A stretch of DNA of 64,000 nt from Opitutales bacterium (GCA_044361555.1 JBIKIO010000001.1:8393-72392); one strand, 5' to 3'. Positions 26,267 to 64,000 are shown, counted from the stretch's first letter. A program made the numbers and translations. The notes: a model not told the origin generated them from the letters alone.

Positions 26267-26271
26267 AGTTT

Positions 26272-27198: not shown

Positions 27199-27205
27199 GG
27201 GTGTA

Positions 27206-44906: not shown

Positions 44907-46310
44907 TCAGACGCCCTTAGAAGGATATTCATCCAACCAAGAATTGCCGCCGGCTTCGTCCGCGAAGACGCCTTCCAGCTGGGCCTCGAAGGCCGCATCC
45001 AGGATACGTTTGAAATCCTTACCAGGCTTCAAACCGCGGGCGACCAAGTGTCGGCCCTGCAGGATCGGCTTCGGCACGCCCTTATCCAGGTTCATGCCCT
45101 GCGCCTTGGCCAGCAGCCAGACGCCATGCTCGGTGGTGTCGCCGACGACCAGCGGCGGGCGGCCCTGACGGTCGGCTAGGTCTACGCGCAGCAGGCGATC
45201 GATACGCCCTACCCTCAGGGCCAGACGACGGACGGCATTGTCGCCCGACTGGGCGCGGAACAGCGCCGACGGCTTATCGTGATTGGCGACGTGCGGGACG
45301 ATCTCCTCGATCAGAGCCTGCTCGCGGGTCAGGCGACCCAGGAACTGACGGGCGATCGGGACGCCGGCCTCCTCGTGACCCAGCGCCCGCCAACGGCCTT
45401 CGGACATGACCGTGGTGACAGCCTTCCCCATGTCATGGCACAGGACGGCCAAGCCGACGACCAGGTCTTCGCGCGGATCGCCGATGTGCTTCTTCGCGAA
45501 AGCGTCGAGGCAATGCAGGGTGTGCGTCCAGACGCAGCCTTCCGGATGCCAGATCGGGTCCTGCGGGACGTCGACGATGGCGGCCAGTTCCGGGAAGTAC
45601 TGCAGCCAGCCGCATTCCCGCAGGAAGTTCAGTCCCAGCGACGGCTTACGGCCCTTCAGGATCAGCTTCGTCCATTCCTCGTACAGGCGCTCGGCCGGCA
45701 GGTCCTTCGGATGCAACGTCGCGCAAAGGGCGACCGTCTCCGGGGCAACCGTGAACTCGAAACGGGCGGCGAACTGCATGGCGCGCAGGACACGCAGCGG
45801 ATCTTCGGCGAACTTTTCGGAGACATGGCGGATCACGCCGGCCTGCAAGTCGCGCTCGCCGTGGTAGAAATCCAGCAGCTCGCCGTTCTCATCATTCCAA
45901 CCGATGGCGTTGATCGTGAAGTCACGTCGCTCCGCGGCTTCCTTCGGGGTCAGCGTTGAATCGACGAAGACCTCGAAATCGCGATGCCCTGCCCCGATGC
46001 GATTCTCGCGACGCGGGACCGAAACATCGACCGGCAGATCTTTCAGCTTGATGACGCCGAAGGCGGCGCCGACCGAGATGATCTCGAATCGTACGGACAG
46101 CGCCGTCTGGATCTGGGCCACGCTCAGGCCGAAGACCTCGATATCGAAATCCTTGGAGCCGATGCCCAGGAGCGCGTCACGGACGCAGCCGCCCATGAAG
46201 AACGGACGGCCGCCGGCGGCACGCAGGAGCGCCAGGACCTCATTGACCGGAGACAGTTCGCCCTCGAACTTCAGCAGTCCGGGACGGAATTGAGAGGTGT
46301 GGGCGTTCAT
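44907..46310 (-). CDS. cca: CCA-adding tRNA nucleotidyltransferase with HD domain
   Basis: FFMGGCVRDALLGIGSKDFDIEV (nucleotidyltransferase head), RRDFTINAI, HD motif LAVLCHDMGK. Confidence 0.85.
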   Translation of the reverse strand: MNAHTSQFRPGLLKFEGELSPVNEVLALLRAAGGRPFFMGGCVRDALLGIGSKDFDIEVFGLSVAQIQTALSVRFEIISVGAAFGVIKLKDLPVDVSVPRRENRIGAGHRDFEVFVDSTLTPKEAAERRDFTINAIGWNDENGELLDFYHGERDLQAGVIRHVSEKFAEDPLRVLRAMQFAARFEFTVAPETVALCATLHPKDLPAERLYEEWTKLILKGRKPSLGLNFLRECGWLQYFPELAAIVDVPQDPIWHPEGCVWTHTLHCLDAFAKKHIGDPREDLVVGLAVLCHDMGKAVTTVMSEGRWRALGHEEAGVPIARQFLGRLTREQALIEEIVPHVANHDKPSALFRAQSGDNAVRRLALRVGRIDRLLRVDLADRQGRPPLVVGDTTEHGVWLLAKAQGMNLDKGVPKPILQGRHLVARGLKPGKDFKRILDAAFEAQLEGVFADEAGGNSWLDEYPSKGV

Positions 46311-46479
46311 GGGATTTTGCCGTTAATCGGCCTTAATGGGTCATTTTCAGATAGAAACGCCGACGAGACCCCGATGTCAACATAATGTTAACACTTGTAA
46401 GTATCTATTTAACAGCGCTCTTCTTTTTAAGCCGCCCAACCCCTTGCTCCTGGGTCACCCAATACCCATACCTACGGAA

Positions 46480-48626: not shown

Positions 48627-49391
48627 ATGAGGAACTATCTGATTATCGTCGCATTGCTGGTCGTCGCTGCGCTCGCCTTCCTGGCCGGCCTGAAATACGC
48701 CGCAGCCGACGGCCAAGGCGGCGAAGTCAGATCGATGGCCCTCATGTTCGTCGCGCTGGGAGGCTGCCTGCTCGGCTACCTTAAGTACGCGGAGATCGAA
48801 GACCAGAACACCGAGCTCATCAAGGCCGGAGGAAACCGTTCGTCCCCATTGCTCCTCACCGAAATCGGCGCGGTCAAAGATGAGCTGCTACGTCTCGGCA
48901 ACCGGGCCTCGGAACCCGCCGCAGACGCGGCGACGCCGCCTGCGTCTGGTGATTTCAACGGCGCCATCGCGGCCTTGGCCAAAGACCTCGGCCTCCGGGA
49001 GAAGGAAACCCAGCGCCTGCACGAGGTTCTCATCCGTCGCGATCATCGCAACGTATTGGCAAGGCTCGCGACCATACGTGAGACCGCCGAGTTCACCCGC
49101 AAGATCAACGCCGCCGGGAAGATCGCCGACAAGGAGGCCCTCAGCCAGGTGATCATGGAGATCGAAGCCGCCCTCGACGACCTCGGGCTCGAGATCATGC
49201 ACGTCTCCGCGGGTACGCGCATCGCCGACCTGCCCAACGGCAGCTTCTCGATCCTCAGCGCCACGCAGGCGGAAGCCGGCGAACAACCGGGCACCGTCAA
49301 AGAGGCGGTCACCGAAGCGGTCTTCGTGCGTGATGCGGATGGCAAGCAAGTCTTCATCGCGCCCGCCAAGCTCAGGGCTTACAAACTCTGA
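48627..49391 (+). CDS. Two-TM-anchored GrpE-like protein (copy 1)
   Basis: N-terminal helices LIIVALLVVAALAFLAGL and MALMFVALGGCLLGYL. A helical stalk. C-terminus ALDDLGLEIMHVSAGTRIADLPNGSFSILSATQAEAGEQPGTVKEAVTEAVFVRDADGKQVFIAPAKLRAYKL resembles the GrpE C-terminal dimerisation/beta domain. Confidence 0.7.
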   Translation: MRNYLIIVALLVVAALAFLAGLKYAAADGQGGEVRSMALMFVALGGCLLGYLKYAEIEDQNTELIKAGGNRSSPLLLTEIGAVKDELLRLGNRASEPAADAATPPASGDFNGAIAALAKDLGLREKETQRLHEVLIRRDHRNVLARLATIRETAEFTRKINAAGKIADKEALSQVIMEIEAALDDLGLEIMHVSAGTRIADLPNGSFSILSATQAEAGEQPGTVKEAVTEAVFVRDADGKQVFIAPAKLRAYKL

Positions 49392-49393
49392 AA

Positions 49394-50077
49394 ATGACCC
49401 GCTGGCTTGCCTCCCTCCTCTTCGGTGCGATCGGCCTGGGCTTGTCAGGCCTGCTCGGTTCCGAACTCGGCCTAAGCTCCGGAATCTGGATCTCCCTGGG
49501 ACTCGTGCTCTGGTGGGCCGCCGGACTATTCTTCAACGACACGAATCAGTTCGCCGAAGATGTCAGCGAGCCGGCGACCATCTCCCCGCGACAGGCTGAC
49601 CCCCGCCCTGCGGACCCGACGGTGCCGGACGACCAGTCGCTGCAAGCCGCCGTCATCGAACTGACCAAGCAGCTGCGCGGCAAGGAGGCCCTGATCGACA
49701 ACCTGCAGGTCAAACTCACCGAACGAGAGTTCCGCCGTAGCCTTTCCCGCCTCGCCAGCGTCAACGAGACCCTGTCCTTCACGCTCAAGCTCCTCCAAGA
49801 CGGCAACCTCACCCATGCGGCCGCCGTCGAACAGCTCCGCCAGGAAATCGAGTCCGCCGTTGGCGACCTCGGACTGGAGCATCACTCGATCCAGGTCGGC
49901 GCCGCCGTCTCCACGCTTCCGGCCGGCTCCTTCGTGATCCTCCGCTCCGAGACCGCGCCGACGCCGGAACTCGCCGGCACCGTCAAGGAAGTCGTCAATT
50001 CAGGCCTGTACGCCAAGGACGAAGCCGGCCGACCCCATTTCATCTCACCCTCCAAAATCAACGTCTACAAACTCTGA
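49394..50077 (+). CDS. Two-TM-anchored GrpE-like protein (copy 2)
   Basis: Paralog of 48627-49391. AVGDLGLEHHSIQVGAAVSTLPAGSFVILRSETAPTPELAGTVKEVVNSGLYAKDEAGRPHFISPSKINVYKL. The start lies 2 nt after the upstream stop. Confidence 0.7.
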   Translation: MTRWLASLLFGAIGLGLSGLLGSELGLSSGIWISLGLVLWWAAGLFFNDTNQFAEDVSEPATISPRQADPRPADPTVPDDQSLQAAVIELTKQLRGKEALIDNLQVKLTEREFRRSLSRLASVNETLSFTLKLLQDGNLTHAAAVEQLRQEIESAVGDLGLEHHSIQVGAAVSTLPAGSFVILRSETAPTPELAGTVKEVVNSGLYAKDEAGRPHFISPSKINVYKL

Positions 50078-50079
50078 CC

Positions 50080-51618
50080 ATGGCTAACATCATCGGCATC
50101 GACCTCGGCACCTCGACCACCCTGCTCGCCCACCTGAGCAATTCCGGCGAGGCCATCATCTACAAGAACAAGGACAACGAACTCCTCACCCATTCGGCCG
50201 TCTGGTTCGAAGGCGAACGCTCCGTCATCGTCGGGACCGAAGCCAAGAAGATGTTCGGCGTCGCCAAGGCAGACGAGATCTTCATCGAATTCAAGCGGGA
50301 CATGGGCGACGCCACCGTGGTCCATAAGATCCACGGCAAGGATTGGCATCCGCGCGATTTCAGCGCGCTCGTCCTCCGTCAGATCCGGGAGCATTTCGAA
50401 GCCAACAACGGTCCGGTCGATGCCGTGATCATCACGATCCCCGCCAACTTCTCCGACGAAGCCCGCGTCAACACGATCAACGCCGCCAAGGAAGCCGGCT
50501 TCAACCTAGGCAACGACGCGCTGGTCAACGAACCCACCGCGGCGGCGATCTACTACGCCAGCACCTCCCCCTCGAAACTCAAAGGCAAATACCTGATCTA
50601 CGATTTCGGCGGGGGCACGTTCGACGCCACCATCCTCGACGTCGATGGCGATGACATCAAGGTGCTCACCAGCATGGGCGTCCAGCGCCTCGGCGGCAAG
50701 GATCTCGATGAGAAGCTCATCGGGCTCATCGGCCAGAAATACACGAAGCTCATCGGTGGCGAATTCAAGGGCAAGGAGACGATGAGCGAGATCCAGCTCA
50801 CGCGCTGGGAGGTGGAGCAGGCCAAGCTGACCCTCTCCTCCCGCGAACGCGTGTCGGTCGCCATGAAGACGCAGGACCGCGGTATCGTCCGGGCCGAGAT
50901 CACGCGTAACGAATTCAACGAAGCCATCTCCACGCTGATCACCCAGGCCGAGCTGGCCGTCGACACGGCGCTCGACAACGCCAAGCTTGAGGCCAAGGAC
51001 CTGGCCGGCGTCTTCCTCGCCGGGGGCTCCACCCTCGTCCCCGCCGTCGCTCAAAGCGTGGAACGGCACCTGGGCATCAAACCCATCAGCCGCGACCCCG
51101 TCGGTTCCGTCGCGCTCGGCGCCTGCATGTACGCCGCGATCCGCAACAAAGCCAAACTCTCCGGAGCCCAGACGGTCGCCGTCGGCGCCAAGAAGGTGCA
51201 GGACGTCACCCCGCACTTCTTCGGCACGACCTACCGCGACCGGGCCTCCGGCAAGCTCATGGTCGACACTATCATCGCCAAGGACCGCCCGCTGCCGTGC
51301 ACCGAAAGCAAGAGCTTCTCCCGCGGCGTGAACCAAGGCGACAGCATCAAGATCCAGATCACCCAGTCTGGAAGCGAACAGAGCGACCCGGATTTCGTGG
51401 ACATCATCTGGACCGACCACCTCAAGGAGCTCCCCATCGTGACCGATGATACCGAGATCAAAGTCAGCTACACCTATGACACGAACGGCATCATGCAGTG
51501 CACGATCCTCGACATCCTTTCCGGGAAATCACTCAGCGTGACCCTAGATAAGAAAGCCTCGACCAGCGCCAAGAAGCCGGCTGGCGGCGTCAACATCAAG
51601 GATTACACCCTCGAGTAA
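50080..51618 (+). CDS. Non-canonical short Hsp70 (512 aa, no helical lid)
   Basis: IIGIDLGTSTT, ALVNEPTAAAIYYA, YLIYDFGGGTFDATIL, VFLAGGSTLVPAV. The protein ends shortly after a beta-rich substrate-binding-like region. Canonical DnaK is about 640 aa. The start context is TGACCATGG. Confidence 0.92.
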   Translation: MANIIGIDLGTSTTLLAHLSNSGEAIIYKNKDNELLTHSAVWFEGERSVIVGTEAKKMFGVAKADEIFIEFKRDMGDATVVHKIHGKDWHPRDFSALVLRQIREHFEANNGPVDAVIITIPANFSDEARVNTINAAKEAGFNLGNDALVNEPTAAAIYYASTSPSKLKGKYLIYDFGGGTFDATILDVDGDDIKVLTSMGVQRLGGKDLDEKLIGLIGQKYTKLIGGEFKGKETMSEIQLTRWEVEQAKLTLSSRERVSVAMKTQDRGIVRAEITRNEFNEAISTLITQAELAVDTALDNAKLEAKDLAGVFLAGGSTLVPAVAQSVERHLGIKPISRDPVGSVALGACMYAAIRNKAKLSGAQTVAVGAKKVQDVTPHFFGTTYRDRASGKLMVDTIIAKDRPLPCTESKSFSRGVNQGDSIKIQITQSGSEQSDPDFVDIIWTDHLKELPIVTDDTEIKVSYTYDTNGIMQCTILDILSGKSLSVTLDKKASTSAKKPAGGVNIKDYTLE

Positions 51619-51624
51619 GCCGCC

Positions 51625-52839
51625 ATGGAATTCGTCTGCGGCTTCTTCATCCTCATGGGCATCATCGGAGCAATCAAAGGCCTGTTCGCGGGCGACAGCT
51701 CCTCCGCCAGTTCCTCCGCCTCTACCCCCTCCTCCGGCGGCGGCTACGGCGGCGGACGAAGCGGGTCGAACATGGGTCGGTTCGAGATCCGGGCGGCACA
51801 GGTCATGCGAGGCACCAAGAAGGACCTGCGGGCGATCGCCATCGAAGGGCGGGGGCTGCTTCCGGTCAGCCGGAGGATGGAGATCCAGTTCGTGACCTGG
51901 GCGGAGGACATCACCGACGACTCCTCCGGCGAGCCGATCTTCTGCAGTCTTTCCAATTTTCAGCATCACGAACACCCGACCTATCAGAACGTCCAGGACG
52001 CCGGCGACCTTGCGCCGAACCAAGGCTTCACCGATTGGGTCGAACTCGGCGTGGCGCCCCTCGACGCGCTCACCTTCCCCCGGAGCGGCGCACGCAACAT
52101 CCGCTTCTACTGCTACATGGCCGAGAAGACTTCGCCCAGCCTGCGCAAGAGCCTGCTCGGAGACAGCTGCAACCTACGGCTGACCGTCGATGAGACCGGC
52201 TACAAGGAATGGAAGGAAAAGCGCGTGGAAGCCCTCACCCTCTCCCTCCGGCTGGGTATCGCCATGGCGCACGCCGACGGCGAATTCGCCCGCAGCGAAG
52301 CCGCCGCCATCAAGCACTGGCTCAAAGAACGCGTCGAGCTGCTGGATGACGCGGAGCAGGCCTCCGCCAAGGCCAAGCTCAACGCCGCGATGGCGGCCGC
52401 CGTGGCGGAAGCCGGCGCCCGCACCCTCAACGTGTCCTCCGCCACGGCCACCCTCCGCGCGTCCCCGGTCCGTAACGCGCCTTATGACGCCTTGGAGCTC
52501 TGCACCATCATCATGGCCGCCGACGGGGTCATCGACCCCGCGGAGATGCGCCTGCTGCGCGAGATTGGCGATAAGATGGGCATCCCGGCGCAACAGATCC
52601 AAGGTCTGACCGACAAGCACACGCCCGAGGCCACCACCGCGGGCGATGACGGCGAGCTGAGCGACGAGCTGCTCGTCGGGCTCGACCCGAAACTGCCTCC
52701 CGCCGAAGCCAAGCGTAAGCTGCGCGAGATCTTCGCCCGCTACAATAGCATGCTGACGACCGAGCGCGACGCCTTCAAGCGCCAGCGCTACCAGGACTGC
52801 ATCGACGCGGTCGCCCGCCTCCGCAAGAAATATGGATGA
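51625..52839 (+). CDS. TM-anchored TerB-domain protein with J-like C-terminal tail lacking HPD (DjlA-like layout)
   Basis: N-terminal helix FVCGFFILMGIIGAIKGLF. TerB-type pairs LGIAMAHADGEFARSEAAAIKHWL and IIMAADGVIDPAEMRLLREIGDKMGI. Tail LVGLDPKLPPAEAKRKLREIFARYNSMLTTERDAFKRQRYQDCIDAVARLRKKYG. Confidence 0.85.
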   Translation: MEFVCGFFILMGIIGAIKGLFAGDSSSASSSASTPSSGGGYGGGRSGSNMGRFEIRAAQVMRGTKKDLRAIAIEGRGLLPVSRRMEIQFVTWAEDITDDSSGEPIFCSLSNFQHHEHPTYQNVQDAGDLAPNQGFTDWVELGVAPLDALTFPRSGARNIRFYCYMAEKTSPSLRKSLLGDSCNLRLTVDETGYKEWKEKRVEALTLSLRLGIAMAHADGEFARSEAAAIKHWLKERVELLDDAEQASAKAKLNAAMAAAVAEAGARTLNVSSATATLRASPVRNAPYDALELCTIIMAADGVIDPAEMRLLREIGDKMGIPAQQIQGLTDKHTPEATTAGDDGELSDELLVGLDPKLPPAEAKRKLREIFARYNSMLTTERDAFKRQRYQDCIDAVARLRKKYG

Positions 52840-53971
52840 CGCTGCCGCCATGGTGAAGCTCTGCCGCGAGCGCCTCACCCCTTGCCTGTTCCGCCTCCCG
52901 TCGACCAGCCTGAGCAAGGAACTCTCCGTCACGGCGACGCCGCGGGACGGCTCCTACTCCTCGCACATGCTGCGGGTGACCGCGGAACTCACCCCCACGA
53001 TGGAGGATGCGGTGCAGCTCGCCTGCCATAACCTCGGTTTCCCCCGGGAGATCCTGGACGTCTACGTGCGACCGAAGAACGAGAACAACGCCTTCAGCAG
53101 CCTGGACGGCGGCCGGGCCAAGCTCATCTTCAATTCCTATCTCGTCGAGATCTCGGACCGTGACGAGCTCGCCTACGTCGTCGGCCATGAACTCGGCCAT
53201 TACCTCTTCCCGGAGGCCAACGTCCGGCAGCTGACCCCCAACCTGGAAGGCTGCATGATCTCGCGTTACAGCGAGTTCACGATGGACCGTATCGGCCTGA
53301 TCGCCTGCCGTAGCGTCGACAAGATGGTCTCGGCCGAGCTCAAAAGCCTGAGCGGACTTTCCAGCAAGCACCTGCGCATGGACGCCACCGCCATCATCGC
53401 GCAGTGGCGGGAAGCCTCCAAGGCGGCCGATACCACCTCGATATGGCTCCGCTCGACCCACCCGCCCACGGGCATGCGCGCCAAGGCGCTCATTCAGTTC
53501 TACGGGTCGGACGCCTACCGCGCCGCCATCGGCCAGTCCGGCGGCGAACCCATCGACCAGGTCAACGCCTCGCTGGGGACCGAACTTGACCGCCTCCTCG
53601 ACAATCACGCCCATCAGCTGATCGCCGAAAAACTGAACAAGCTGAGCGGCTGGCTTTGCGCCTTTGTCGCCTCCCGCGGCATCAAGCTGCGCCTGTCGAA
53701 CCTTCGCCATGGCCTCTGCTCGGCCCCCGACGAGATCATCAAGCGCTGCCTGAGCATCGTCATCGAGGAGACCCCTGAGCCCGAGCGCGAGAAAGTCAGC
53801 AACGAAAAACTGCTGCTCGCCCTGCAGGAAGCCTGCGAACTGGCCCCGGGACATACCCGAGTCTACCTGCAGTCGGTGGCGGCCACGAGTGATGAGATCA
53901 AGCCGCTGCTGCAGCAACTTGACGGACTGAGCCGGCAGCAAGGCATCATGATCGTCCCCCCGGCCGCCTGA
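52832..53971 (+). CDS. Soluble M48-like zinc metalloprotease
   Basis: HExxH in YVVGHELGHYLF, and the downstream M48-type WLRSTHPPTGMRAKAL. No TM helix is evident. Alternative start at ATG 52850 (context GCCGCCATGG). The ATG at 52832 overlaps the upstream stop by 8 nt. Confidence 0.8.
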   Translation: MDDAAAMVKLCRERLTPCLFRLPSTSLSKELSVTATPRDGSYSSHMLRVTAELTPTMEDAVQLACHNLGFPREILDVYVRPKNENNAFSSLDGGRAKLIFNSYLVEISDRDELAYVVGHELGHYLFPEANVRQLTPNLEGCMISRYSEFTMDRIGLIACRSVDKMVSAELKSLSGLSSKHLRMDATAIIAQWREASKAADTTSIWLRSTHPPTGMRAKALIQFYGSDAYRAAIGQSGGEPIDQVNASLGTELDRLLDNHAHQLIAEKLNKLSGWLCAFVASRGIKLRLSNLRHGLCSAPDEIIKRCLSIVIEETPEPEREKVSNEKLLLALQEACELAPGHTRVYLQSVAATSDEIKPLLQQLDGLSRQQGIMIVPPAA

Positions 53972-53984: not shown

Positions 53985-55316
53985 TCAGAGATAGCGCTGC
54001 CTCAGCTTGGCGATGGCTTCGAGCTGGCGCGTGATCATGGCTCGGTCAGCGGCATCCTTCGGGTGGCGGGAATTCCACTTCATGAACTGATCCAGCAGAT
54101 GGCGGCGGATGCGGCGGGTATCCCAGCCGAGGTCCAAGCCCACGAGCTCCGCGTATTCCTGGTCACGCCCCGCTCCCTCCCCTTCGTTCGCCGCATCGAT
54201 ATGACGATGCAGTTCCTCCAGTCCGAGGCTCAGCTCACGACACAGGCCCTTGAGTTCGGCCATGACCTCGGCGGAAACGGCGCAATCGACCCTGCCGACC
54301 TCGACGCAAAGAGCCAGCGCCTCCTGCGGCATGCCGGCGACTTCATAGGCCAGGAGTTCGCGACAGACCACCCCGAGGTCGGACCTCGCCCCCCTGGCCA
54401 TAGTCGCCGCCGCTTCCAGCGAGGCCTGGGTCTGCGCGACCAATCGGGCGTCTTCGCCTTTCAACTGATCAAGGTGCCGGCGCATCCATGCCTGGGCGGC
54501 GGGCCCTGCCTGCAGCGGTTCACGTCGCACGCGCGCCGCGAACGCATAGCCCAGGCATACGACCAACCCCGCCGCGTTCTGACGGGCGTAACGTTGCTCG
54601 ACGTAACCCTTGCGGACAAGCGTGACCTCGAACTGGGTCGTCGCCGCCGCCAGCATACCTGCGCGCAGGCGCTCATCGATGACGGTAAGCCCCGCCAAGG
54701 CGGCAGGGACTGCCACGCAACTGAGTCTTAGCGTGCGCTGCCCGGATTTCGGAGCCCGGATATTAGCGAAAGGGATGATGCCGACCGAAGTCCAGCCGGA
54801 GTCAGGCCGGCCCGGCGACGACACCTTGCCGAGAGTGCTCCGGACGACGAACTGGCCAGTCTGGTCATCCTGATACCTCTCCATCGTGGCATAGACCGGC
54901 TGGGATGATCCGTCGCTCACGTCCTCCATCGTCACGACCAGGTCGACGATCGTCTCTCCCATCACCTCGATGCCGCCGCTCACGTCGATCCGGAAACCCG
55001 GCTGCTCCTCCCCGGTCTTCTTATCGCGCAATTGGCAGGCTTCGGCCTGCAGGCGGAAGGGCTTGCTCGAGATTGGCGCGAAGCGGACTCCGGGGAAAGC
55101 TTCGCGAAAAACCTGCTCGGCGCTCTTCGCCGAAGGGGGCTTTGCCTGGGAAGCGGACGAGGGTGGCGGACGATGGTTGGTCCGAGGAGGCGGCGGGGGC
55201 GGCGTATCCTTTCGCGGCGGTGGCGCCGCTTCCGCCTTATCCTTACGCCACAGGTACAGATAGACGCCACCTCCGGCGAGGACCATGGCGGCGGCGATGT
55301 AGACGTAGGCGTTCAT
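53985..55316 (-). CDS. TM-anchored, Pro-rich paralog of 51625-52839 with J-like tail carrying HPKD
   Basis: N-terminal helix YVYIAAAMVLAGGGVYLYLW, then EAAPPPRKDTPPPPPPRTNHRPPPSS. The middle domain aligns by eye with 51625-52839 (VTMEDVSDGSSQPVY vs VTWAEDITDDSSGEPIF; PKSGQRTLRL vs PRSGARNIRF). Tail YAELVGLDLGWDTRRIRRHLLDQFMKWNSRHPKDAADRAMITRQLEAIAKLRQRYL. Confidence 0.8.
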   Translation of the reverse strand: MNAYVYIAAAMVLAGGGVYLYLWRKDKAEAAPPPRKDTPPPPPPRTNHRPPPSSASQAKPPSAKSAEQVFREAFPGVRFAPISSKPFRLQAEACQLRDKKTGEEQPGFRIDVSGGIEVMGETIVDLVVTMEDVSDGSSQPVYATMERYQDDQTGQFVVRSTLGKVSSPGRPDSGWTSVGIIPFANIRAPKSGQRTLRLSCVAVPAALAGLTVIDERLRAGMLAAATTQFEVTLVRKGYVEQRYARQNAAGLVVCLGYAFAARVRREPLQAGPAAQAWMRRHLDQLKGEDARLVAQTQASLEAAATMARGARSDLGVVCRELLAYEVAGMPQEALALCVEVGRVDCAVSAEVMAELKGLCRELSLGLEELHRHIDAANEGEGAGRDQEYAELVGLDLGWDTRRIRRHLLDQFMKWNSRHPKDAADRAMITRQLEAIAKLRQRYL

Positions 55317-55381: not shown

Positions 55382-55900
55382 CTATCCCTCCACCTGCCAC
55401 GCGGCCAGATCGGCGAACAAGACGGCGTGACGCGGATCGGCACAGGCCGGCTTGAACCATCGTTGCCGCGGAGCCGACGGCGACAGGTCGTCATACCAGG
55501 CGACGACCGCGGGCATCAAGGGGTGCGGCGCCCGCCAGAGCTCGATGCCCTTGTGGCCCTGGGTGACTTCGGCCCACGTCGCGAAAGCCTGCGTCTCTTC
55601 CCTGAGAAAATCCAGCAACAGACCGGACAGGTCATCCGGGCCGCCGAAACCGACGTCGTAATCGTAGAGGTAGGCGCCGGCGAGCTGCTTGGCGAAGGCG
55701 GCGACATCCGTGTTCTCCCGGCGAAAACCGGCCCGGAAAGAGTACCGGTCAGGCAAGGTGGCCAGCATCGTCTCACGGACGATTGCGAAGTAAGTCCAGG
55801 CCATCATGACGCGGAATTGGGCTTCTTGGTCGCCCCGTTGCATCGCCGCCGTGATGCGCCGGCGCGTCGAGAACTCTAGGTAAGCGGGATTGGGAGCCAT
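55382..55900 (-). CDS. Hypothetical protein, 172 aa
   Basis: An internal ATG at 55900 lies 2 nt after the stop of the small upstream ORF (TGACCATGG). The track ORF extends to 55972 with an alternative start. No motif recognised. Confidence 0.6.
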   Translation of the reverse strand: MAPNPAYLEFSTRRRITAAMQRGDQEAQFRVMMAWTYFAIVRETMLATLPDRYSFRAGFRRENTDVAAFAKQLAGAYLYDYDVGFGGPDDLSGLLLDFLREETQAFATWAEVTQGHKGIELWRAPHPLMPAVVAWYDDLSPSAPRQRWFKPACADPRHAVLFADLAAWQVEG

Positions 55901-55902: not shown

Positions 55903-56082
55903 TCAGAACAGCGCCTTGCAGCCCTTGATGACGAGGCCGAGGACGAACAGCACTCCCACGCCGACCAGGCATCCGCCGAGATAGTTACCCCAGCCGCCCG
56001 CCCGTTCCGCCTTGGCGTTGATCACGAAAAGGACGAAAGCGCCAGTCAACAGCATGCAGATCAATTGACCGGGGTCTTTCAT
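55903..56082 (-). CDS. Small two-TM membrane protein, 59 aa (below the ORF-track cutoff)
   Basis: Hand translation: MKDPGQLICMLLTGAFVLFVINAKAERAGGWGNYLGGCLVGVGVLFVLGLVIKGCKALF*. ATG at 56082-56080, TGA at 55905-55903, coupled to the next gene by TGACCATGG. Confidence 0.5.
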   Translation of the reverse strand: MKDPGQLICMLLTGAFVLFVINAKAERAGGWGNYLGGCLVGVGVLFVLGLVIKGCKALF

Positions 56083-56224: not shown

Positions 56225-56623
56225 ATGCGAGACTATAACGAATACTACGTCTTCCTGAACGCCACCCCCCAGAGCAGCCAGGCCGACATCGACCGGGCGT
56301 ACCAATCGGTGATCGGCGAAGCCCGGCGCCAAGGAGGGTTCATGCTGGACATCGTGGAAGAAGGCTACCGCTGCCTCTCGGATCCGACCACCCGCGCCCA
56401 ATATCATGCCGGCACCTACCGTCATGATATTCGCGTGAGCATGCTGCGCGAATCTCATGACCGCGAAGGCCGCACCGCCCAGTTCGACGCGTTTCCACGG
56501 CTCAAGAAGATCCAGTTCTACCAGTATATCTTCGACTCTGACGAAGTGAACGTGACCTTCGAGATGCTACCCAACGGGAAGTTCCGCAATACGAAGACCG
56601 GCGAGATCGTCGACCAACTCTGA
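56225..56623 (+). CDS. J-like domain protein lacking the HPD motif, 132 aa
   Basis: The ATG at 56225 gives MRDYNEYYVFLNATPQSSQADIDRAYQSVIGEARRQGGFMLDIVEEGYRCLSDPTTRAQYH. This follows the J-domain helix I-III pattern (YY.lLgv....s..eI..AY......HPD.....f..i.eAY.vLsD...R..Yd), with EARRQGG where HPD is expected. Confidence 0.6.
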   Translation: MRDYNEYYVFLNATPQSSQADIDRAYQSVIGEARRQGGFMLDIVEEGYRCLSDPTTRAQYHAGTYRHDIRVSMLRESHDREGRTAQFDAFPRLKKIQFYQYIFDSDEVNVTFEMLPNGKFRNTKTGEIVDQL

Positions 56624-56628
56624 CCGCC

Positions 56629-57087
56629 ATGGGTCTTTTCGACGCACTCTTCGGGCCTTCGGTCAAGGAACGGATGCTGCCCTATTTCCAAGGGCGTGGA
56701 AAACCGATGCATGAGCGGATCAGCCGCTGCGTCCGGGAGCTCTACCCCACCCTGGAGCTGAGTGACATCACTCCTTTCCATGAGGCCGGGAGCGAGCTGA
56801 CCGCTTCGGCCGACGGCTCGAACGAAGCACAGGCGATCTTCTCGGCCTGCGCCGCCCGGGCCGGCATGAAGGTCATCGCCATGACCATGCAGAAGGGCGC
56901 CGACCCTGACTGGCGCGTGATCATCAACAGCGAAAGCGTGGGTGTCTCCGCTCGGCCGTCCGATCTCCTGCAATTCGGCAAATACCGTAACGTCCGCACG
57001 CGCGTCCAGATCTGGATGTGCCTCCATGACGATGACACCCCGATGATGGACATTGTCACCGGCCCGGATTGGGAGAGACTTACCTGA
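56629..57087 (+). CDS. Hypothetical protein, 152 aa
   Basis: ATG in the context ACCGCCATGG, 5 nt after the upstream stop. Ordinary protein-like composition. No motif recognised. Confidence 0.6.
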   Translation: MGLFDALFGPSVKERMLPYFQGRGKPMHERISRCVRELYPTLELSDITPFHEAGSELTASADGSNEAQAIFSACAARAGMKVIAMTMQKGADPDWRVIINSESVGVSARPSDLLQFGKYRNVRTRVQIWMCLHDDDTPMMDIVTGPDWERLT

Positions 57088-57091
57088 CTCC

Positions 57092-57715
57092 ATGCGCGAC
57101 CCTGACTTCAATTACACCAAAGCCACGCTGAGCGAGCTCCAGACCCAGGCGGCCAAGCATGACGCCTATGCGATGAATGCGCTCGCCTGGCGTCTCGCGC
57201 ATGGCGAAGGCGTCGCCGTGGATGGCGCCGAATCCCGCCGGTGGTACGCCCGCTCGGCCGCCCTCGGCAACGCCGAGGGGCTTTACAACCTCGGGGTCTG
57301 CCATGTGAACGGCGACTTAGGAAAGATCGACCCTGTCGAAGCCTGTCGGCTTTGGCGATTGGCCGCGGCCAAGAACCACTACGCCGCGCTCGGTAATCTT
57401 GGGATTTCTTATTACTACGGGAACGGCGTACCCCAGGACTACGTGCAAGCCCGCGAATGGTTCCTCCGTTCGGCCAACACCGACGAACCTCGCGCCATGG
57501 GCATGATGGGGCAATTCTACCATCTCGCACGGGGCGTCCCCGAGGATAAGATCGAGGCGTTGGCGTGGTATCTTCTCGCCGCCGAAAAATCTGACGAGAC
57601 GGCCGTTCCGAGGACGAACCTCCTGAGGGAACTCACCGCGGCGCAGCAAGCCTCCGCCCGGACCCGCGCCGAAGTCCTGCGCCAGTCGATCAAGCATACG
57701 CCCTACCTCGACTGA
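57092..57715 (+). CDS. Sel1-repeat protein
   Basis: ATG at 57092, 4 nt after the upstream stop. Repeats such as AMNALAWRLAHGEGVAVDGAESRRWYARSAALGNAEGLYNLGVCHVNG. Confidence 0.85.
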   Translation: MRDPDFNYTKATLSELQTQAAKHDAYAMNALAWRLAHGEGVAVDGAESRRWYARSAALGNAEGLYNLGVCHVNGDLGKIDPVEACRLWRLAAAKNHYAALGNLGISYYYGNGVPQDYVQAREWFLRSANTDEPRAMGMMGQFYHLARGVPEDKIEALAWYLLAAEKSDETAVPRTNLLRELTAAQQASARTRAEVLRQSIKHTPYLD

Positions 57716-57723
57716 GCCTTCCC

Positions 57724-58416
57724 ATGGATTACTACTCCAAGATGGATGACAGCGCCGTCGAGGCCAAGGCCGCGGCCGGCGACCCTGTCGCCCAGACTCG
57801 GCTCGGCGTCCTCCATGCACGCGGCCAAGGCCGTCCGAAGGATTTCGCGCAGGCCCTCCATTGCTGGCAACTGGCGGCCGCCCAGGGGCACGCCGACGCG
57901 ATGTGCAATCTCGGCAACCTCTATGACCTGACCGACGATCACCCCCGTGATGACGTCGAAGCCGCCCGCTGGTATCGGGAGGCGGCCGAGCGCGGACATC
58001 TTAAGGCCCAGTTCAACCTAGGAATAAAATATTCCCACGGACAGGGGCTGGTTCGGGACATGGCCCAGGCCGCCCGCTGGTTCCGCGCCGCGGCGGACCA
58101 AGGCGACTCCATGGCGCAGTTCAACTTCGCGCTGCAATGCGTGCATGGGGAGGGCGTGCCGAAAGACGCCGGCCTCGCCGCCCGCTACCTCAAACTGGGC
58201 GCGGACCAAGGCGACGTCCAATGTCTGAACAGCTTGGCGATCCTCCATGCCACCGGCGACGGCGTCCCGCATGATCTCGTGCGGGCCTATGCGCTCTGGA
58301 CGGTCGCCATCCGCAACGGCGGCACCCAGTCGGAAGGCAACCTCCGCCACCTCACCACCACCATGACCCCGCGCCAGATCGAATTGGGCGAACAAGCCGC
58401 CGCGCAGATCCGCTGA
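57724..58416 (+). CDS. Sel1-repeat protein
   Basis: Repeats: AQTRLGVLHARGQGRPKDFAQALHCWQLAAAQGHADAMCNLGNLY; AARWYREAAERGHLKAQFNLGIKYSHGQG; and further units. Confidence 0.9.
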   Translation: MDYYSKMDDSAVEAKAAAGDPVAQTRLGVLHARGQGRPKDFAQALHCWQLAAAQGHADAMCNLGNLYDLTDDHPRDDVEAARWYREAAERGHLKAQFNLGIKYSHGQGLVRDMAQAARWFRAAADQGDSMAQFNFALQCVHGEGVPKDAGLAARYLKLGADQGDVQCLNSLAILHATGDGVPHDLVRAYALWTVAIRNGGTQSEGNLRHLTTTMTPRQIELGEQAAAQIR

Positions 58417-58420
58417 TCCT

Positions 58421-59002
58421 ATGACGCACCCGCTCATCGATCTCTTCGCTATGCCGACGCTTCCCATGGCGTTCTCGAGCGTGATCCGTAACCTCCCCGT
58501 CCCCTTCACCCGCAAACTCACCAAGCGACCCAAGAACGGCTGCCTGCTCGCCAACGATGAGTTCTACGTCGTATTCGAAACCTACCCGCTGGCCGTCAAG
58601 CAGATGACCCAGATGATCGGCGAGCAGCAGATCGACCCGATCCCCGTCGAGTACCTTTACGCCGCGTCCGTCTTCTATCGTAAATCGCGTAATCCGCACG
58701 GCCCTTCCTCCCGCCCGATCTACGTCTTCTGCCTAGAATACACCGAGTTCACCTGCGATATGAGATCCCGCGGACTCTGGGATACGCTGACCGGCAAGCC
58801 CAAGCATCCCGCCGAAGTCTTCTCCGCCGTCTTCTTCGCCGACGGGCGCACCAACCATGGCAAAGTGCCGAACGACTTCACGGATGCCTCGGCGCGCGAA
58901 TACCTCATGCTCGGCGTATGTGAGCGGCTAGGCCTGACGCGCGGCGACTTCCGGGAGATCGGCCCGCTGTCGCTCGGAGCCGACTGCCCCGAAGTCGCGT
59001 AA
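58421..59002 (+). CDS. Hypothetical protein; paralog of the C-terminal domain of 61278-62105
   Basis: Shared blocks, first from this gene then from 61278-62105: DEFYVVFE vs DDFYVIVE; SVFYRKSRNPHGPSSRPIYVFCLEYT vs SCFYRESRSPHPRARRHPIAIFTLEHS; GLWDTLTG vs GFFDRLLG. Confidence 0.7.
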   Translation: MTHPLIDLFAMPTLPMAFSSVIRNLPVPFTRKLTKRPKNGCLLANDEFYVVFETYPLAVKQMTQMIGEQQIDPIPVEYLYAASVFYRKSRNPHGPSSRPIYVFCLEYTEFTCDMRSRGLWDTLTGKPKHPAEVFSAVFFADGRTNHGKVPNDFTDASAREYLMLGVCERLGLTRGDFREIGPLSLGADCPEVA

Positions 59003-59012
59003 GACTCCGGAT

Positions 59013-60491
59013 ATGGCGAACGAGATCAATAAGCCGATTGGCACCCCGGTCCTGATCGGGATCGGGCTCGGTGTCCACGAAACCACCGTCGCCAGGCTCA
59101 ATGAAGCGGGTAAGCCTGAGCTTGTCCGGAATATCGACGGCGAAGAATCTACGCCCTCCGTCGTCCTGATCGACGATGGCGGCGCAGTTACGGTCGGTCG
59201 CGAAGCCAGTAAGTTCATCGGAACAGGCATGCCAGGGGTCTTCGCTGAATTCACGCGCGACCTGGGCAACCCCTCGGCCTGCGGCGGACTTAACCGCACG
59301 CCCACGCCGATGGCCCTGACCACACTACTCCTCCGGCAGGTCGTCCAAGGAGTCACGGAATCGTTCGGCCGGTTGACCGCGGTCACGATCGCCATACCCG
59401 CAGATGCGACTAGCCACTTCAGGGTAGCCGTGCATGCGGCCGCCCGTGAGGCGGGCCTTCCCGATGTCAAGTTGACCGACGAAACTACGGCCGCCGCGCT
59501 ACAACTGACTTCGCAGGAAGAGCTCCGCGGCAAATACCTCTGGTATCGAATGGCGAAAAGTACCTTCGACGCAGCCATCTTCGAGTCCACCGCCCGTACG
59601 GTCAGCATTCTGGCCAACTTCAGAATCCAACGGCTGGGTTCGAAAGATTTCGATCAAAAACTCCTGAACCTTATCCATCAGAAATACCTGCGGATGACGG
59701 GCGACACGAAAAGCGCCCAAGACTTTCAGGTAGATTGCAGCCTCACCCGGCTGGATCTCGAGAGCGCACGGGAAACCTTGAGCACAAGGTCGAGGACAGC
59801 CTTGCGGCTCGTCTCTGGAGACCATGGCCCGTTGAAGATCGAGCTCACCCAAGAGGACTTCGGCTCCGCTGTCCGCCCTCTTCTGGAACAAGCTGCGCTG
59901 GCTGTCGACATGGCACTGGATCAGGCCAATCTCAGACCTCAGGAGCTCACCGGCGTCTTCTATACCAGCGACGACGACCTCGGGCACGTCATCCAAACGC
60001 ACCTGGCCAGTCATACTGGTCAGCGCGCTCGTCCGACCGCGCCTCAGGTCGTCGCGCTTGGCGCCGCCTTAGTCTCGGCGAAAAAGGCGAATCCAGAAGA
60101 TCTTAACGCCCTGCAATCAATAAGCGCACAGTACCTGAAAATTACGGATATAGCGCCGCACTACCTAGGACTTATCGATCGTGATTGGCTGACAGGAACC
60201 TTACAGAACCGGATCATCATCAGGAAAGGCGAACCCATCCCTTGCGCCCGCCGCTTCGAGGTCCAAGCCGACGGCACCGGCTTCTTTCCAGCGATCGGAC
60301 TGACCCAATCCGGCTCCGAACAGACCGACCCCGATTTCGTCGCTATCATCGGGAATATTTCGTCCTCCCAGTTTCGGCCACATGCCAAAATCCTGCTCAC
60401 GATCGGCTACGACGTTAACGGCGTAGCCTATGCCAAACGGGAAAACATCGATGAGGGCGGCCACCAGGAAATCCGCGTCGGGCCAGGGTAG
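59013..60491 (+). CDS. Hsp70-fold paralog with eroded nucleotide-binding motifs (probable pseudo-ATPase)
   Basis: Collinear with 50080-51618, but the motifs differ, first from this gene then from 50080-51618: VLIGIGLGVHETT vs IIGIDLGTSTT; LTDETTAAALQL vs VNEPTAAAIYY; YLWYRMAKSTFDAAIF vs YLIYDFGGGTFDATIL; VFYTSDDDLGHVI vs VFLAGGSTLVPAV. The shared C-terminal block (I/L)TQSGSEQ(S/T)DPDFV confirms paralogy. Confidence 0.85.
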   Translation: MANEINKPIGTPVLIGIGLGVHETTVARLNEAGKPELVRNIDGEESTPSVVLIDDGGAVTVGREASKFIGTGMPGVFAEFTRDLGNPSACGGLNRTPTPMALTTLLLRQVVQGVTESFGRLTAVTIAIPADATSHFRVAVHAAAREAGLPDVKLTDETTAAALQLTSQEELRGKYLWYRMAKSTFDAAIFESTARTVSILANFRIQRLGSKDFDQKLLNLIHQKYLRMTGDTKSAQDFQVDCSLTRLDLESARETLSTRSRTALRLVSGDHGPLKIELTQEDFGSAVRPLLEQAALAVDMALDQANLRPQELTGVFYTSDDDLGHVIQTHLASHTGQRARPTAPQVVALGAALVSAKKANPEDLNALQSISAQYLKITDIAPHYLGLIDRDWLTGTLQNRIIIRKGEPIPCARRFEVQADGTGFFPAIGLTQSGSEQTDPDFVAIIGNISSSQFRPHAKILLTIGYDVNGVAYAKRENIDEGGHQEIRVGPG

Positions 60492-61277: not shown

Positions 61278-62105
61278 ATGCCCAACAAGCCAAAGCACTC
61301 ATCGTCCACCCGCCGGAAGCCCGCCGGAAGCAAAAGCCCGGGCAAGCATGACCTGACCAAGCCCCGCCAAGCCGGGAAGGCGCGAAGCGCGGGGTCTAAA
61401 TTCAGCCACCGTCCCTATAAGCCCCGGAAACCCACGCCCAAGAAGCCCCGCTCCGCGGAGGCGATCTTGCAGGAGGCACGTGCCACCCGGAAAGCCCTGA
61501 TCCGTAAGGCCAGCCGGCGCCCGAGCATTAAGGCCGTCTCCCGGCCTTCGCCGACCAGCGCCGCCCACCCCAAGAGTTCCGCTAGCCGGGTCTTCCCGCC
61601 GCTCTTGGAGGCCATCGGCAACCCTCCGGTCATCGCCAGCGGTCATGGGCAATACGACGCACGACCCGAGGTATGGGCCGCCGACGATTTCTACGTCATC
61701 GTCGAAGCCGAGCCGGCATGCGTCGGGGCCTTCGCCCGGGAGCTGATCGGTTTCCGCTACGTCATGTCGGCGAGCTGCTTCTACCGTGAAAGCCGCAGCC
61801 CGCACCCCCGGGCGCGCCGTCATCCGATCGCTATCTTCACCCTCGAACACTCGAAAGCGCTTCCCCATTCGGACCCAGGCTTCTTCGATCGCCTGTTGGG
61901 AGAGGAAGCCAAGCCGCTCAGCATGGTCGTCGGCGGGTTCGTCGCGGACGCTCGCCTCAGATTCGATAGCGTCAGTTACGACGAGGACTTCCCGCGCGGT
62001 AGACAGCGTCTGCTTGCCATGGCCCGAGAGCATGTCGGCATCAGACCCCATTTCGATTTCTACGGCTATCTCACCCAGGGAGAGATCCTCCCGGCCATGA
62101 GGTAA
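61278..62105 (+). CDS. Hypothetical protein: basic K/R/P-rich N-terminal region + domain paralogous to 58421-59002
   Basis: The ATG at 61278 gives MPNKPKHSSSTRRKPAGSKSPGKHDLTKPRQAGKARSAG.... The C-terminal domain shares the blocks listed under 58421-59002. The track ORF start 61041 overlaps the previous ORF. Confidence 0.65.
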   Translation: MPNKPKHSSSTRRKPAGSKSPGKHDLTKPRQAGKARSAGSKFSHRPYKPRKPTPKKPRSAEAILQEARATRKALIRKASRRPSIKAVSRPSPTSAAHPKSSASRVFPPLLEAIGNPPVIASGHGQYDARPEVWAADDFYVIVEAEPACVGAFARELIGFRYVMSASCFYRESRSPHPRARRHPIAIFTLEHSKALPHSDPGFFDRLLGEEAKPLSMVVGGFVADARLRFDSVSYDEDFPRGRQRLLAMAREHVGIRPHFDFYGYLTQGEILPAMR

Positions 62106-62617: not shown

Positions 62618-63187
62618 TTACCTGCACCACCAAAGATTCGCTTCTAGGTGGTGCAGGCCTTTGGGGACATTACGCCAGCCCTCACGCCATGCGTAGGCGT
62701 GGAAGCCGACAAGCATGTCAGCCATCTGTAACTGCGGACAGGCGTGGGACCGTTCCATGCGGACCTCCCTGGCACCTAAAGCGGCTCTTATCTCCGATGA
62801 GCGAAGGCGGTCCCGCTCGCCGTCGATGACGATCCTGACAGCCGGCTTATGAAAGCCGAAGGCATCGTAACAATGAAGCATCACCGCCACCTCGGGGCGA
62901 TACCCAGATGGCAATGGACCACGTTGCTTATCCCAGATCGCCACGCGGTGCGCGACAAGTAACCGCGCCATAGCTGTCAGGTAAGCCATTCTCACATCGG
63001 ATGGCATCTTCGACCACTTGAACTCGCCTGACCATCTGAGCCCGACGCGGGTCTTTTCCTGAGCCTCGGCAAGCCGAGCCGCGGTTTCTCCGTCAGCACA
63101 GTGCAGCATAGCTATGGCGAAGTAAGACGACGAACCTGATTTGGTCGACAGCCCCGGATCGCCGCTTTCGTCACAAAAAATCAACAT
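62618..63187 (-). CDS. DUF3800-family protein, 189 aa
   Basis: The ATG at 63187 gives MLIFCDESGDPGLSTKSGSSSYFAIAML (DUF3800-type start) and a later LQMADMLVG. The track start 63295 is a TTG inside the repeat. Confidence 0.7.
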   Translation of the reverse strand: MLIFCDESGDPGLSTKSGSSSYFAIAMLHCADGETAARLAEAQEKTRVGLRWSGEFKWSKMPSDVRMAYLTAMARLLVAHRVAIWDKQRGPLPSGYRPEVAVMLHCYDAFGFHKPAVRIVIDGERDRLRSSEIRAALGAREVRMERSHACPQLQMADMLVGFHAYAWREGWRNVPKGLHHLEANLWWCR

Positions 63188-63290
63188 ACACCATTGCCTT
63201 GATTGGAATCGGTTTCGGCAACCCGACCTCATTGGTGACTTAACTTCAGATGCAGCTGAGCGGTTAAACTGCCTATAGCCAAATCCCTCC

Positions 63291-63535
63291 CCCAACCGCT
63301 AACCGCCAACCGCTTCCACCTAACCTGGGTAGGGTCGGGACCGCGTCACGACATAGCTGCCTCTCTGTGCTCCCAACCGCCAACCGCTTACCGCCAACCG
63401 CTCGCGGCATAGCCGCGGTAGGTAGGGATGACCGGCTCGGTCATCCTCGGGCGCGCGGGCCGCACGCCCCTACCCTACGACATAGGGGTTTTTCCGGCTT
63501 GAGGGTAAATGGACATCAGACACTCTTTAGTTATC
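63291..63535. repeat. Structured direct repeat, copy B, 3' of the second DUF3800 gene
   Basis: See copy A. The offset between copies is 994 bp. Confidence 0.85.
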
Positions 63536-63614: not shown

Positions 63615-64000
63615 TCAACCTTCACCAATCACCGCGAGGTGGACGATGGGATTACCCAACGCTTCCATCGGCCTGATGTCTTGGCTCACGATCTGACGCC
63701 AGACCGCCCAAGTACAGTAATCTGCGATCTGCAGTTCGAGACTCGAAGCAGACGAGTGGAAGTGAACCGAACGATGTCCGGCGCCCTGACGGACGGCCTT
63801 CATGATGGCCTTACGAGAACGCTGCAAAGGCACGCGATCGGCGTAGACGGGACAATCGCCTGAGGCAGGCTGAGACAACGACAAGACCAACTTGAAGAGG
63901 TCGACGTAAACTTGAGATAAATCCTCAGGCGGCTTCGTGCAGGTCGACTTATCCAGGACGATGGCGAAGACTTGGGAGCCGGCACCCGTTGCCGCCAAAC
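63615..64000 (-). CDS. DUF3800-family protein, N-terminus beyond the window (partial)
   Basis: The C-terminal part has LQIADYCTWAVWR, which parallels LQMADMLVGFHAYAWR in the neighbouring gene. The track start at 63998 is a TTG, and the frame is open to the window edge. Confidence 0.55.
   Translation of the reverse strand, partial: LAATGAGSQVFAIVLDKSTCTKPPEDLSQVYVDLFKLVLSLSQPASGDCPVYADRVPLQRSRKAIMKAVRQGAGHRSVHFHSSASSLELQIADYCTWAVWRQIVSQDIRPMEALGNPIVHLAVIGEG

Follow-up and report, generated by a model that had tools for sequence, protein, structure and literature searches.

Why would a bacterium keep an Hsp70 that has lost its ATPase motifs next to a J-like protein that has lost its own catalytic motif, and to what kind of system would such proteins belong? 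This question is raised by six genes at positions 56225–60491, hereafter module 2, of a 64,000-nt stretch of DNA from an Opitutales bacterium (GCA_044361555.1 JBIKIO010000001.1:8393-72392), which we refer to as the window and whose positions are counted from its first letter. The products of module 2 are, in order, a J-like protein without the His-Pro-Asp (HPD) motif, an orphan protein of 152 amino acids (aa), two Sel1-repeat proteins, a member of an unannotated family of ~182 aa and a lidless pseudo-Hsp70. Upstream lies module 1, which encodes a second, active Hsp70. The sequence-only reading of this DNA proposed that the two modules together form a two-tier chaperone-like system in which the inactive Hsp70 paralog serves as a regulator or substrate receptor for the active one. 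Our analyses demonstrate that the cassette is real and conserved; it is functionally uncharacterised and resembles the specialised Hsp70/J-protein systems typified by HscC. Its order is conserved in several lineages and its genes are under purifying selection, and hence it is more than a chance assembly.

The six genes are co-directional, on the plus strand, with gaps of 5, 4, 8, 4 and 10 nt in gene order, and divergent from a minus-strand operon encoding a small transmembrane protein. This layout had been described from the sequence and was borne out by the open reading frame (ORF) calls, and the gene content given in the same description proved accurate. None of the six products has a transmembrane segment and all are soluble, the membrane anchors of the region being carried by module 1 and the divergent operon. 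The start of the first gene at 56225 is backed by its orthologs, which are called at 132 aa, and leaves a divergent intergenic region of 142 bp; a longer ORF starting at 56081 was rejected on these grounds. Scans for promoters and terminators returned counts equal to the shuffle expectation and were uninformative.

A pseudo-Hsp70 retained under purifying selection

The last gene of module 2 (59013–60491, +) encodes a protein of 492 aa that comprises a nucleotide-binding domain (NBD), a linker and the beta part of the substrate-binding domain (SBD-beta), and which is recognised by PF00012 with an E-value (E) of 5e-23. Along its entire length it shares 35% identity with the module-1 Hsp70 (E 4e-82), and alignment with DnaK and HscC of Escherichia coli showed homology through the NBD, a DVTP-type linker and SBD-beta. 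Both Hsp70s of the window (492 and 512 aa) are lidless since their sequences stop right after SBD-beta, and both, together with their whole family, have the HscC-type deletion of DnaK residues ~76–101 in lobe I of the NBD. The module-1 protein has kept all catalytic and nucleotide-binding residues. In the module-2 protein (DnaK numbering) D8 is replaced by G, T11 by V, K70 by T and D194 by R, the GGG loop (G196–198) has become AKS, with DxGGG reading RMAKS, and the adenosine-binding GG loop has become SD(DD).

The losses at K70, D194 and the GG loop are common to orthologs at 89, 54–57 and 38–40% identity, which points to an inactivation that happened once, long ago, in a gene that was then retained. 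Orthologs ranging in identity from 89% to 38% have an uninterrupted, full-length reading frame, both Hsp70 paralogs have kept the linker and the SBD motif TQSGSEQxDPDF, and the gene always lies directly downstream of the 182-aa gene with a gap of ~10 nt or less. Compared with its counterpart in the closest strain (L103), the pseudo-Hsp70 has a dN/dS of 0.25 at a dS of 0.22, the value for the active Hsp70 being 0.07; the protein is hence a pseudo-enzyme that has been maintained, not a copy in decay. Its paralogy to the module-1 Hsp70, the destruction of its ATPase motifs and the purifying selection acting on it all agree with the degenerate Hsp70 paralog that the sequence-only reading had placed here.

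A J-like protein without the HPD motif

The first gene (56225–56623, +) encodes a protein of 132 aa that is predicted to consist of an N-terminal J fold (approximately residues 5–63) and a conserved C-terminal domain of ~65 aa. Its family is small (15 clusters, 55–100% identity), and 11 of 11 members matched PF00226 below threshold, with a best E of 8.3e-6; the window protein itself scored 20.2 bits, under the Pfam gathering threshold of 27.8 bits. When the family profile was compared with the PDB, 26 of the 27 matches were J domains (best E 0.0014, residues 5–63), and the alignments covered the whole of the PDB J domains apart from a deletion of 4–7 residues at the HPD loop. Single-sequence searches of the PDB with this protein and with the 152-aa protein returned no matches. 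An AlphaFold2 (AF2) model of the J-like protein (pLDDT 80) had its helices in the expected positions, including the helix II–III hairpin of the four-helix J fold, and the top ~45 Foldseek matches to it were nearly all J domains, the leading ones with a probability of 1.0 and target TM-scores of 0.6–0.74.

The HPD motif is needed for triggering ATP hydrolysis by Hsp70. It is absent from all 11 aligned members of the family, in which a shortened, conserved loop, IGEARRQGG or a variant of it, stands in its place. Based on sequence profiles and the structural model, the first product is best described as a predicted J fold without its catalytic switch, and its dN/dS is only 0.03–0.08. An earlier assignment of this gene as J-like, with HPD replaced by EARRQGG, is thereby backed by PF00226, by the PDB profile search and by AF2/Foldseek; a first gene that failed to model as a J domain had been named as grounds for abandoning the two-tier proposal, and the profile and the model both return J domains.

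Mitochondrial Pam16/Tim16 is likewise an HPD-less J-like protein, and it regulates the J protein Pam18. Both proteins have kept the J fold and lost HPD, which by analogy would imply a regulatory or scaffolding role for the window protein rather than stimulation of an ATPase. Unlike Pam16/Tim16, the window protein is bacterial and carries an additional conserved C-terminal domain, the two have no detectable specific sequence relationship, and the window locus yielded no partner J protein with HPD.

The 193-aa protein and its family

The fifth gene (58421–59002, +) encodes a 193-aa member of the ~182-aa family. The family has 66 clusters when grouped at 90% identity, and a search of 1.84 billion proteins gave 154 representatives at the 50% level; its members have a near-invariant loop (the FYRKSRNPHGPS loop), ASVFYRKSRNPHGPSxRPI. 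The AF2 model of the 193-aa protein is a confident one (pLDDT 92, pTM 0.88), and Foldseek searches of the PDB and BFVD with it found no matching fold, with nothing above a TM-score of 0.4 and no E below 0.06; scattered low-probability matches to the SBD of Hsp70s were dismissed as meaningless. Pfam also contained no match to the protein. Assignment to DUF1266 was rejected, there being no PF06889 match and a probability of 1.5% in the hhalign comparison of the family with YbeU, and a phage origin was rejected since no relatives were found in IMG/VR or GenBank phages. A plasmid search with a distant fusion member of the family matched its peptidoglycan (PG)-binding domain only.

The domain also occurs in fusions. 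In P0146 and P0197 an HPD-less J-like domain is followed by a long helical region, the 182-aa domain and a C-terminal transmembrane segment, a layout like that of DjlC, and in P0116 the domain is fused to GYF domains. In six further proteins (P0143, P0145, P0156, P0167, P0180 and P0194) an N-terminal KRGFxGLSxL motif precedes the 182-aa domain, which is followed by a transmembrane segment and then a periplasmic PG_binding_1 or SH3_3 domain; P0156 alone has a sigma-70 region 1.1 at its N-terminus. Downstream of module 2 in the window itself, a 275-aa protein (61278–62105, +) with a Lys/Pro/Ser-rich N-terminus has a C-terminal 150 aa that is paralogous to the 193-aa protein (BLASTP E 2e-14). In L014 its 60%-identical ortholog is found immediately upstream of a family member of 189 aa, and the 275-aa protein is possibly an associated second copy of the family.

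The Sel1-repeat proteins and the 152-aa protein

The two Sel1-repeat proteins are cytoplasmic and have 207 and 230 aa (57092–57715 and 57724–58416, both +). Both match PF08238 well above its cut-off of 30.7 bits, the former with four repeats (E 7.5e-27, 93 bits) and a start that agrees with the call in identical contigs, the latter with five (E 1e-37, 128 bits). The 230-aa protein is 34% identical to E. coli YbeT across 115 aa. A further Sel1-repeat protein, of 575 aa, is encoded upstream in the window (32620–34347, −).

The second gene of the module (56629–57087, +, from the ORF call) encodes the soluble 152-aa orphan, which has no sequence match in Pfam, NCBIfam, PADLOC or the PDB. Its orthologs are 75–88% identical with dN/dS values of 0.08–0.30, and the gene is confined to full-type cassettes, being missing from L027/L029 and L009. 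A relationship to DUF1266 or to the 182-aa family was rejected by hhalign (probability against YbeU 0.1%).

Module 1 and the divergent operon

Module 1 (48627–53971, +) encodes two proteins with transmembrane and coiled-coil segments (254 and 227 aa), which are paralogs of each other, the 512-aa lidless Hsp70, a transmembrane TerB protein of 404 aa and an M48-type metallopeptidase of 379 aa. Between the two modules, the divergent operon encodes a 443-aa TM/TerB-like protein (53985–55316, −; TM denoting a transmembrane segment) that is paralogous, at 25% identity, to the TerB protein of module 1, a 172-aa protein (55382–55900, −) and a 59-aa protein with two transmembrane segments (55903–56082, −). 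This divergent set is present in all full-type loci.

From its sequence, the 12-kb region had been thought to encode two Hsp70-fold proteins, one protease, two GrpE-like proteins and three J-like proteins. The Hsp70 pair and the M48-type peptidase were found. The 254- and 227-aa proteins gave no significant GrpE signal: they had no Pfam match, a profile of nine orthologs failed to retrieve GrpE from the PDB up to an E of 10, and hhalign against E. coli GrpE yielded a 16-residue match that was in the expected C-terminal position and had a probability of 0.5%. To the eye, both TerB proteins have J-like C-terminal tails, and the tail of the 443-aa protein contains KWNSRHPKD, an HPD with an inserted Lys that is kept in L006 and L017 and not in L009. 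J domains in these tails were not supported, as the tail profile gave only unrelated weak matches in the PDB, and so one J-like protein is established and not three.

Linkage of the two modules in other genomes

Related loci were collected from contigs carrying exact or related proteins, from a scan of GTDB species representatives and from a metagenome scan, and were annotated with hidden Markov models built here. The loci with an organism label are the three from the GTDB scan, all uncultured Opitutae metagenome-assembled genomes; the 182-aa gene was thus present in 3 of 185,579 species representatives.

In six arrangements, module 1, the divergent operon and module 2 follow one another in a conserved order and orientation, and the components of these arrangements have diverged to ~40–60% identity. 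The arrangements for which a taxon could be assigned come from freshwater Opitutae. Module 1 is followed by the full six genes of module 2 in the window and L001-5, in L006/7 and in L026, by module 2 without the 152-aa gene in L027/L029, by five genes (J-like, 152-aa, both Sel1 and 182-aa) without the pseudo-Hsp70 in L017/L073, and by only the 182-aa gene and the pseudo-Hsp70, together with a GYF protein, in L009. Module 1 stands alone in L013, L074 and L075, where 5–8 kb of unrelated genes lie downstream. Other loci show the 182-aa family in different company: Sel1 and tail-anchored J-like proteins lacking HPD, in the absence of Hsp70 (L014), Sel1 alone (L018), no recognised partner from the cassette (L019) or, as a neighbour, a canonical tail-anchored HPD J protein (L022). 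Linkage of the modules across genomes, on which the two-tier proposal depended, is therefore real but facultative: six arrangements share it, and one lineage has module 1 without module 2. The label of an Hsp70-centred module does not hold, as the pseudo-Hsp70 is missing from L017/L073 and the 182-aa family is also found with J or J-like and Sel1 genes where there is no Hsp70. What stays constant in module 2 is the 182-aa domain, not Hsp70.

The 182-aa family was also found with two differently arranged Hsp70-TerB sets. One, on the P0109 contig, consists of Sel1, J-like, 182-aa, superfamily 1 (SF1) helicase, TerB, Hsp70 and M48 genes and lies beside a type I restriction-modification (RM) system. 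The other (L020:3181-11178) encodes a tail-anchored HPD-less J-like protein of 516 aa, a 193-aa protein, an 835-aa Hsp70, a Ser/Thr kinase, a 152-aa transmembrane protein, an FHA protein, a 183-aa family member and a 144-aa TerB protein; the C-terminus of the L020 193-aa protein has a GrpE-like look. Frequent among the collected loci was an architecture that we call type B (L011, L028, L032, L035, L038-L047, L050-L054, L057, L058 and L060), in which genes for M48, a 328-aa protein, Hsp70 and TerB are followed by one for a minus-strand SF1 (AAA_11/AAA_12) helicase of ~1,090 aa and then by two further tandem Hsp70 paralogs, the last of which shows degeneration of D8 and the GG loop to a variable extent. 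An active core Hsp70 with a more or less degenerate paralog thus recurs in a second, helicase-containing architecture.

Uneven rates of evolution along the cassette

Every module-2 gene tested had a dN/dS of 0.03–0.30, and the genes differ considerably in how far they have diverged. When the window is compared with L006, the active Hsp70 and M48 are 92–95% identical and the J-like and Sel1 proteins 83–89%, compared with 70% for the 182-aa protein and 54% for the pseudo-Hsp70, whose active paralog stands at 92%. Between the window and L103, dS is 0.07 for a downstream 173-aa gene (95% identical), 0.22 for the pseudo-Hsp70 (89% identical), 0.53 for the C-terminal part of the second Sel1 protein and 1.21 for the 182/193-aa gene (window 58421–59002 versus L103:626-1174; 69% identical with an 11-aa indel). 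This sharp variation in dS along the cassette indicates an apparent replacement of the 182/193-aa gene by a different allele, and we infer from the pattern that the 182-aa protein and the pseudo-Hsp70 behave like a specificity-determining pair.

Genomic surroundings

A PolyA_pol(−)/DUF2779(+) gene pair (window 44907–48369) is a conserved backbone shared with L014, L017, L018, L019 and L006, and since the cargo on both sides of it differs among related Opitutae genomes it marks a variable hotspot. Neighbours in related loci include type I RM, Srf (SrfB/SrfC) and Z1/HATPase genes. A 722-aa SNF2-family helicase gene (41194–43362, −) is a further backbone gene, which also occurs in L018 and L019. 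On the far side of the cassette, two DUF3800 genes (62618–63295 and 63615–63998, both −) lie between it and a housekeeping sigma-70 gene, and in identical contigs (L001:13606-18612) a Y1 (IS200-like) transposase gene is located further downstream, before the sigma-70 gene. A long co-directional operon (10117–28639, −) carries a TerY-P-triad-like set, namely a Ser/Thr kinase (17500–19008), a PP2C phosphatase (19011–21209) and two vWA proteins (23229–24746 and 24761–26266), as well as several large proteins without a Pfam match.

Comparison with known systems

The closest layout is that of the hscC locus of E. coli K-12, which is annotated in the order ybeQ (Sel1), ybeR (DUF1266), djlB, ybeT (Sel1), ybeU (DUF1266), djlC and hscC. 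Both loci group a specialised, non-DnaK Hsp70 with J proteins, two Sel1 proteins and two small proteins, and in both a small-protein gene directly precedes the gene of its partner. They also have in common the HscC-type deletion in the NBD, an association with the membrane and a function that is largely uncharacterised. HscC works at the membrane with the tail-anchored DjlB and DjlC, the latter being in the plasma membrane, prefers positively charged (basic) peptides and does not depend on GrpE, and deletions of hscC or djlB/djlC confer phenotypes of sensitivity to Cd2+ and UV only (PMC8215388). The differences are also considerable. The cassette Hsp70 is catalytically dead, is 28% identical to HscC and has no lid (492 versus 556 aa for HscC); HscC-type Hsp70s are 550–580 aa long with a shortened lid, whereas neither window Hsp70 has one. 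The window J protein is soluble and lacks HPD, whereas DjlB and DjlC have a tail anchor and HPD; related loci do carry tail-anchored J or J-like proteins. The small proteins of the cassette are not DUF1266, and the cassette is joined to a set of a second, active Hsp70, TerB and an M48 peptidase that has no counterpart in the E. coli locus.

Homologues of Hsp70 with weakened ATPase motifs, or additional Hsp70 paralogs, have been described in multi-gene predicted defence loci, where J-domain or TPR-type adaptors are found close by. Type III CoCoNuTs contain CnuD, a degenerate Hsp70 NBD/SBD unit (PMC11090510), and GAP1-N2 GTPase systems have Hsp70, GrpE and a second Hsp70 consisting of the NBD only (PMC7159879). 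The window locus differs from these in having no McrBC, HEPN, GTPase, tubulin or vWA-MoxR component, its partners being TerB, M48, Sel1 and the 182-aa domain. DjlA, which is membrane-anchored and has a TerB-like N-terminal domain and a J domain, resembles the window TerB proteins in their N-terminal transmembrane segment and TerB domain, and one of them has a weak match to NCBIfam DjlA over its TerB part (E 0.0025). In contrast to DjlA, the window proteins have tails without a detectable J domain and an additional beta-rich middle domain, and they are encoded outside module 2.

Scans of all components with PADLOC and NCBIfam identified no known system. The one PADLOC match in the whole region was a weak one to PDC-S48 (E 0.0015), in the module-1 TerB protein. 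Literature searches found no description of a defence system of Hsp70, TerB, M48 and Sel1, nor of hscC in phage defence.

Interpretation

We tentatively favour, with a confidence that falls somewhat short of even, the reading that module 2 is an accessory, non-enzymatic adaptor/receptor cassette for a membrane-tethered lidless Hsp70/TerB/M48 system of freshwater Opitutae. The pseudo-Hsp70 would be an ATP-independent client-binding subunit, either a holdase or a receptor, and the 182-aa protein its translationally coupled partner, the two forming a pair that evolves more rapidly than the rest of the cassette. A connection from this pair to the active Hsp70 and the TerB membrane proteins may be made by the J-like protein and both Sel1 scaffolds, with the active Hsp70 supplying ATP-driven remodelling and the M48 peptidase a proteolytic output. 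A role for the dead paralog as regulator or receptor would be plausible. What survives of the two-tier proposal is its gene content, the paralogy of the Hsp70s and the adjacency of the modules; it had not foreseen that the 182-aa domain is central and the pseudo-Hsp70 dispensable in some lineages, and its GrpE and additional J-like components are unproven. The biological role is probably in conflict, defence or the sensing of envelope stress rather than in general proteostasis, based on the hotspot location, the patchy distribution, the allele swapping and the presence of RM, Srf and Z1 genes next to related loci.

Several observations weigh against an adaptor cassette with such a role. L017 and L073 have the other five genes without the pseudo-Hsp70; module 1 occurs without module 2 in L013, L074 and L075; and in L014, L018, L019 and L022 the 182-aa family is found, in part with Sel1 or J-like genes, where there is no dedicated Hsp70, TerB or M48. 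A canonical HPD J domain was found nowhere in the 12-kb region, none of the six module-2 proteins matched PADLOC-DB 2.0, and the case for defence is one of guilt by association.

The loci in which module 1 or the 182-aa family stands without the other are what would be expected if module 2 were an independent J-like/Sel1/182-aa system, working with the housekeeping DnaK or by itself, that sits beside module 1 merely as co-cargo of the PolyA_pol/DUF2779 hotspot, in which related genomes do carry different cargo. We consider this doubtful, given that the order of module 1, divergent operon and module 2 has outlasted divergence of the components to 40–60% identity in six arrangements, that one narrow lidless subfamily includes both the pseudo-Hsp70 and the module-1 Hsp70, that the pseudo-Hsp70 lies beside module 1 in every contig long enough to show its neighbourhood, and that the 182-aa family accompanies the Hsp70-TerB sets of the P0109 contig and L020 as well. 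The absence of the pseudo-Hsp70 from L017 and L073 could also mean that it is a functionless, decaying duplicate and that function resides in the other five genes only, and its being the fastest-evolving component (54% against 92% for its active paralog in the same genome pair) would fit. This is very improbable for a gene whose frame is intact and full-length in orthologs from 89% to 38% identity, whose inactivating substitutions are shared while its linker and SBD are conserved, whose dN/dS is 0.25 at a dS of 0.22, and whose close spacing (~10 nt or less) behind the 182-aa gene is always kept.

The resemblance to the hscC locus could point to a different function for the entire region, namely an HscC-type proteostasis or stress system that attends to the cytosolic domains of membrane proteins, or to metal or UV stress, and has no role against phages or mobile elements. 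The analogous layout, the Cd2+ and UV sensitivity of the hscC and djlB/djlC deletions, the tail-anchoring of DjlC in the plasma membrane (PMC8215388), the link of TerB domains to tellurite and stress resistance that their Pfam name conveys, and the lack of matches to known defence families would all agree with this. Nevertheless, we regard it as rather unlikely, given a very narrow and patchy distribution (the 182-aa gene in 3 of 185,579 species representatives), a location in a hotspot, alleles of the 182-aa gene that are swapped between close strains, a pseudo-Hsp70 and a 182-aa gene that evolve fast compared with the other genes, and RM, Srf and Z1 genes next to related loci. More speculative is a decoy or guard, a possibility that we rate as slim: the cassette, made up of the pseudo-Hsp70, the HPD-less J protein, the Sel1 scaffolds and a 182-aa bait of new fold, would be a catalytically dead mimic of the host Hsp70/J machinery that binds phage or other invader proteins which hijack or inhibit DnaK/DnaJ, thereby releasing or activating the membrane-tethered active Hsp70-TerB-M48 module and causing an abortive response, and the invariant hydrophobic-basic loop of the bait would be an in-built Hsp70 client segment. 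If so, the 182-aa domain would represent a new class of Hsp70-linked immune adaptor that includes its J-like, GYF and PG-binding fusions.

The significance of module 2 lies in its being a natural pseudo-enzyme pair, a dead Hsp70 and a predicted HPD-less J protein, that is held under purifying selection beside an active paralog. Its 182-aa domain is new, in that it is unannotated, confidently modelled and linked in genomes, in some cases by fusion, to J and Hsp70 components. The layout matches that of the long-unexplained hscC/djlBC/Sel1/DUF1266 locus, and therefore the combination of Sel1 proteins, a small adaptor, a J protein and a specialised Hsp70 may be a general design. If the cassette is a defence or stress-sensing device with M48 as its output, it would reveal a chaperone-based sensing principle for prokaryotic immunity and provide a handle on the function of HscC.

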